Below are positions 9,588 to 9,618 of a stretch of DNA of 64,000 nucleotides, one piece after another. Location of the stretch: the NCBI RefSeq assembly GCF_057098645.1, contig NZ_CM169472.1. The stretch is one strand, 5' to 3'. Under the pieces are notes generated by a model. The model worked only from the letters and a program-made list of their open reading frames with translations. It did not search any database and was not told the DNA's origin. A program made the position numbers and the translations under genes. Position 1 is the first letter of the stretch; each line of letters begins with the position of its first letter.

Positions 9588-9618
9588 TTGACCTTCCCGT
9601 AAGGGGAAGGACTATGCT
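9588..9618 (+). promoter_or_regulatory. CueR (MerR-family) copper-responsive promoter for cueO
   Basis: -35 TTGACC (9588-9593), a 19-bp spacer containing the dyad CCTTCCCgtaaGGGGAAGG, and -10 TATGCT (9613-9618); the long spacer with internal dyad is the MerR-type architecture. Confidence 0.6.

Follow-up and report, generated by a model that had tools for sequence, protein, structure and literature searches.

The question raised by this locus is what drives transcription of cueO, and specifically whether the 31 bp at positions 9588-9618 of a 64,000-nucleotide stretch of contig NZ_CM169472.1 (RefSeq assembly GCF_057098645.1; this whole stretch is called the window below) form a promoter of the MerR type under the control of the copper-responsive regulator CueR. 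A preliminary description, made from the letters of the sequence, had proposed this. We consider, with a probability of about 0.95, that 9588-9618 is PcueO, the CueR-dependent MerR-type sigma-70 promoter of Escherichia coli cueO. The promoter observation is real, its earlier reading is correct, and the feature is already known. Indeed, descriptions of the cueO promoter with its CueR box go back to about 2000, and the two are a textbook case of how MerR-type regulators activate by distorting DNA. The result carries little weight as a discovery, the promoter being already well studied; its value is that of a check that such an architecture can be recognised correctly from raw sequence alone, with the exact coordinates and the start of the dyad now fixed.

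The window is E. coli DNA. Several O157:H7 and O145 chromosomes carry positions 9300-9900 with 100% identity, and of 5426 complete E. coli genomes 5424 contain this segment. From these matches the background of the window is non-K-12, and the promoter is unaffected by this: the whole yacC-cueO intergenic region, 9499-9663 (165 bp), is 100% identical to that of K-12 MG1655, so that the object under study is the K-12 cueO (yacK) promoter, base for base, MG1655 being the strain used for the published work on it. In 4941 of 5424 E. coli records a promoter stretch of 71 bp is kept at 99% identity or more, which at 71 bases means no mismatch. Matches to the cueO promoter also occurred on plasmid-labelled E. 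coli records, in 10 places with a 601-bp query and in 3 with the 71-bp query.

In an identical record, the annotated genes run in the order speD, speE, yacC, cueO, gcd. The preliminary description had spoken of a multicopper oxidase downstream and of its Met-rich insert, and this was borne out by three Pfam oxidase domains (Cu-oxidase_3, Cu-oxidase and Cu-oxidase_2) and by an insert visible in the translation. CueO is a periplasmic multicopper oxidase that detoxifies copper, and the gene behind the promoter serves copper homeostasis; at the N-terminus of the protein there is a weak match to TAT_signal (21.1 bits, under the curated Pfam cut-off of 22.7). The regulator gene itself lies outside the 64-kb window. 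Because 5424 of the 5426 complete genomes of E. coli contain K-12 cueR, the source genome almost certainly has the gene as well. Elsewhere in the window, two known E. coli elements gave Rfam matches at gathering level, namely the HtrA 5' UTR thermometer at 53366-53411 (plus strand, 77 bits) and the t44 sRNA at 62282-62368 (plus strand, 82.9 bits). A seven-gene chaperone-usher fimbrial operon between panB and folK (22536-29500, minus strand) was placed from the annotation of an O157:H7 record, the collinearity of the window with that record being confirmed only around cueO.

The features of the intergenic region and its two genes are as follows.

9151-9498, minus strand: yacC, in window coordinates, from the annotation of the identical record
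9588-9593, plus strand: -35 hexamer TTGACC, read from the sequence, 5 of 6 positions agreeing with the consensus TTGACA
9592-9610, no strand assigned: CueR operator dyad CCTTCCC / GGGAAGG, from an inverted-repeat search, centred at 9601
9594-9612, plus strand: spacer TTCCCGTAAGGGGAAGGAC, 19 bp by base count, 2 bp above the sigma-70 optimum
9613-9618, plus strand: -10 hexamer TATGCT, read from the sequence, with TAnnnT kept and a non-consensus G-C
9623-9628, plus strand: inferred transcription start zone from standard sigma-70 geometry, with +1 about 7 nt past the -10 hexamer, near 9625
9651-9657, plus strand: Shine-Dalgarno region TAAGGAA, ending 6 nt ahead of the ATG
9664-11214, plus strand: cueO coding sequence, 516 aa, from the annotation of a 100%-identical record

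Direct reading of the sequence returned exactly the coordinates and the spacer length that had been given for TTGACC and TATGCT. Such a spacing belongs to the 19-20 bp of long-spacer promoters rather than to the usual 16-18 bp. A 17-bp spacer could not be recovered by moving either hexamer, since on inspection the shifted hexamers had only 0-2 of 6 consensus matches. The dyad had been placed between the hexamers. A perfect inverted repeat is present, but it does not lie wholly in the spacer: its arms, 9592-9598 and 9604-9610, are 7 nt each, 100% complementary and separated by the 5 nt GTAAG, and the left arm begins inside the -35 hexamer, sharing that hexamer's final two bases, an overlap of 2 bp. 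The split offered earlier, CCTTCCC gtaa GGGGAAGG, leaves arms of unequal length and has to be replaced by the symmetric parse CCTTCCC-gtaag-GGGAAGG. A dyad-symmetric operator that is centred in the spacer and overlaps the edge of the -35 hexamer, as this one does, is the mark of a MerR-type promoter.

The assignment of the dyad to CueR could be compared with a published standard. The core of the CueR operator, CCTTCC-N7-GGAAGG, is given in the cryo-EM study of CueR transcription activation complexes (PMC8169799), and the cueO operator matches it with 0 mismatches and in the same register as the copA operator of K-12. The preliminary description had fitted the dyad to a CueR site. The operator sequence as a literal string found no match in the literature searched.

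From standard sigma-70 geometry, we infer that cueO transcription starts near 9625, which would make the 5' UTR about 36-41 nt long; regarding this start site, PMC2760140 makes no mention of cueO. The predicted fold of the leader (9625-9705) was no better than that of shuffled sequences (z +1.07), and a structured cueO 5' UTR was dropped as a candidate on this basis.

How much of this pattern would be expected by chance? The exact core CCTTCC-N7-GGAAGG has a single match in the 64 kb and none in any of 100 dinucleotide-preserving shuffles. On a uniform-composition estimate, 0.004 exact cores are expected in 64 kb and about 0.3 in a genome of 5.5 Mb; when one mismatch is allowed, no additional sites appear in the window, at an expectation of 0.10. 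The bare geometry of the hexamers behaves otherwise: TTGAC-N20-TANNNT was found twice in the window against 1.45 expected, that is, at chance frequency. The second match, TTGACGTCGGTTTGCGCACAGAACCTAACCT at 43455-43485 on the plus strand, has no dyad and was rejected as a MerR-type promoter, being at chance level. Significance resides in the dyad, in its register and in its conservation, and not in the bare hexamer geometry. The chance frequency of that geometry is also what could be said for the idea that hexamers and dyad resemble a promoter by accident, have no regulatory role, and leave cueO to be transcribed from elsewhere. Against it stands the absence of the exact core from the shuffles, and also the result of a conventional promoter scan (16-18-bp spacer) of 9000-10200, which called no promoter. 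In that interval the long-spacer promoter upstream of cueO therefore has no conventional competitor, and the accidental reading has no alternative promoter to point to.

Conservation bears on the same point more directly. A CueO protein scan with one genome per species yielded 80 loci from 80 other species of Enterobacteriaceae at 74-98% protein identity, among them members of Escherichia, Citrobacter, Salmonella, Enterobacter, Klebsiella, Raoultella, Kosakonia, Kluyvera and Phytobacter. Of these 80 loci, 79 have kept the -35 hexamer and the dyad together with a -10 hexamer of the form TAnGCT at 19-bp spacing, 60-72 nt ahead of the ATG, while the flanks drift. Together with the window, these 79 loci give 80 promoter sequences, and the 19-bp spacing is fixed in all of them, since a gapless anchor on the -35 hexamer leaves the T, A and T of the -10 hexamer invariant. 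The -35 hexamer is TTGACC in 78 and TTGACG in 2 of the 80, and each of the 73 distinct sequences (73 of 73) has the same C just upstream of it. The -10 hexamer reads TATGCT in 40 and TAAGCT in 38 of the 80, making the non-consensus G-C nearly universal. Mean information over the 31-bp promoter is 1.65 bits per position, compared with 0.63 and 0.74 in the two 30-bp flanks. A footprint of this kind, drawn from 79 other species with invariant spacing, marks out those bases of the operator and of the -10 hexamer that are under selection. Judged from these alignments, the conservation pattern effectively refutes a chance resemblance, and we regard that explanation as having next to no probability.

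The operator itself is not kept uniformly. The left half-site CCTTCC is present in 69 of the 80 promoter sequences, the right half-site is GGAGGG rather than GGAAGG in 43, and the perfect 6/6 core occurs in only 13, E. coli included. The Shine-Dalgarno block ATAAGGAA is conserved across genera. The distance from the -10 hexamer to the ATG is 45 or 43 nt in E. coli and other Escherichia as well as in some Citrobacter, and 33-36 nt elsewhere (window 9619-9663 compared with loci L018-L082); the leaders of the first group are about 9-11 nt longer owing to an insertion around 9626-9637. The one exception among the 80 loci is Intestinirhabdus alba (L076), whose cueO has no such promoter: no match was found within 3 mismatches, a displaced upstream copy included. 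The arrangement is therefore not obligatory for cueO. At positions 1200-2000 of this locus, an MCP-like ORF takes the upstream place of yacC and is followed by a G+C-rich, repeat-like spacer of about 800 bp.

The asymmetry of the right arm also helps in judging whether the dyad is a protein site at all. In RNA, a G+C-rich stem of 7 bp closing a loop of 5 nt would be possible, and it might serve as a terminator or attenuator, either for read-through from upstream or for transcripts running in the direction of yacC. However, the stem is not followed by a T-run, and no terminator was called. The inferred cueO start is downstream of the dyad, and on the other side the dyad precedes the divergently oriented yacC, so that it is probably not transcribed. 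Moreover, in the other genera the right arm is mostly GGAGGG, and in 52 of the 80 promoter sequences five of six pairs are complementary. Pairing at 5/6 fits a protein half-site that tolerates asymmetry rather than the compensatory upkeep of a stem. An RNA hairpin is consequently an explanation to which we give almost no credence, and a CueR operator remains the preferred reading of the dyad.

The yacC side of the intergenic region carries conserved blocks of its own. In about 77 Enterobacteriaceae these are AACGTTAGCA[C/T]ACT (9527-9541), GCGACGA (9550-9556) and TTATT (9560-9566). Read on the minus strand, 9527-9567 contains an A/T-rich UP-like block, the -35-like TCGTCG, 17 bp, and the extended -10-like TGc-TAACGT; the minus-strand reading of 9536-9528 on this side is TGCTAACGT. 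These blocks make 9527-9567 a candidate yacC promoter, placed back-to-back with PcueO and clear of the CueR dyad. The standard promoter scan did not call it. It is also conceivable, though less so than the tuning of the operator considered below, that the same blocks are a yacC promoter whose output is coupled to the distortion induced by CueR.

Regulation of cueO by CueR and its response to copper have been shown by the literature. Activation of both copA and cueO by CueR is reported in PMC8169799, PMC5329002 and PMC9909328. PMC9396075 names PcopA and PcueO as the only two CueR-targeted promoters and states that the specific CueR-DNA FRET signal in living cells is lost when both are deleted; the same paper describes a PcueO-lacZ fusion assayed with Cu, Mn and Ni, in which Mn activates and Ni does not, Cu being shown in the same figure panel. 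Loss of PcueO copper induction in a cueR deletion is likewise a published finding. Comparative genomics had already listed the "yacC-yacK divergon" in 2006 as a candidate CueR site with a 19-nt spacer promoter, noting this cassette ahead of Salmonella cueO as well (PMC1526738). Structurally, the 19-bp spacer is bent in the cryo-EM structure of PcopA (PMC8169799), and the logic of activation by distortion is common to MerR-family promoters (PMC9909328).

On this background, the following mechanism can be proposed for PcueO. With 19 bp between them, the two hexamers would be too distant, and wrongly phased, to be contacted by sigma-70 at the same time, which would leave the promoter weak when unaided. 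A CueR dimer would occupy CCTTCCC-N5-GGGAAGG at the middle of the spacer, on the side of the helix facing away from RNA polymerase. By analogy with PcopA, CueR lacking Cu(I) would keep the promoter in a repressed conformation, and CueR carrying Cu(I), or likewise Ag(I) or Au(I), would kink and under-twist the spacer. The distorted spacer would then bring the hexamers into alignment and allow transcription from near 9625, cueO being expressed alongside copA. We infer the distortion step at PcueO from the structures solved on PcopA.

A long spacer with a central dyad is not peculiar to CueR, and the regulator at 9588-9618 might in principle be another member of the MerR family, such as SoxR, ZntR or a further paralogue, acting on a long-spacer promoter of the same design. 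The 19-bp spacer and dyad architecture is common to the family, and the soxS promoter, also with a 19-bp spacer, matches cueO at 18 of 31 positions in register. The half-sites decide the matter. Those of SoxR are CCTCAAG/CTTGAGG, and those of ZntR are ACTCTGGAG/CTCCAGAGT with a 20-bp spacer; both are unlike cueO, whereas cueO carries the very half-sites of copA and of the published CueR core, and the literature names CueR for cueO. A SoxR or ZntR operator at cueO was rejected, the half-sites matching neither the soxS nor the zntA promoter of K-12. We hold it very improbable that a regulator other than CueR is the one that uses this promoter. The soxS/SoxR and zntA/ZntR promoters are otherwise among the known systems closest to PcueO. 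They share with it an over-long spacer and a dyad centred between -35 and -10 (K-12 zntA with 20 bp and the dyad ACTCTGGAGTCGACTCCAGAGT, K-12 soxS with 19 bp and CCTCAAGTTAACTTGAGG), and they differ from it in their half-site sequences and their effectors.

Close counterparts are the Salmonella cuiD/cueO promoter (locus L021) and the cueO promoters of the other 78 loci, which stand ahead of the orthologous gene and have the same -35 hexamer, a 19-bp spacer and a TAnGCT -10 hexamer. Salmonella and other Enterobacteriaceae differ from E. coli in that the right half-site is mostly GGAGGG and in that 33-36 nt separate the -10 hexamer from the ATG, compared with 45 nt in E. coli. The asymmetric operator and the non-consensus TAnGCT might conceivably give cueO a copper threshold or dynamic range other than that of copA, with the E. 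coli site secondarily "perfected"; this idea, drawn from the alignments, is speculative and in our view rather unlikely.

Within the CueR regulon, the promoter to compare is that of copA, on which the structures and footprints in the literature consulted were made. The preliminary description had suggested a comparison with the CueR box of copA, and when this was carried out the two promoters agreed in -35 hexamer, spacer length (19 bp), half-sites and dyad centre. The K-12 copA promoter is TTGACC-TTCCCCTTGCTGGAAGGTT-TAACCT; like cueO, it has the -35 hexamer TTGACC, the half-sites CCTTCC/GGAAGG and a preceding C, and in both promoters the dyad is centred on base 14, counting from the first base of the -35 hexamer. 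Overall, 22 of 31 positions are identical. The differences lie in the central 7 bp (CGTAAGG in cueO, CCTTGCT in copA), in the -10 hexamer (TATGCT in cueO, TAACCT in copA) and in the reach of the dyad, which extends to 7 bp per arm in cueO and in copA grows outward (A...T) where cueO has A...A. The overlap of the dyad with the -35 hexamer is 2 bp in cueO, compared with the 3 bp described for PcopA.
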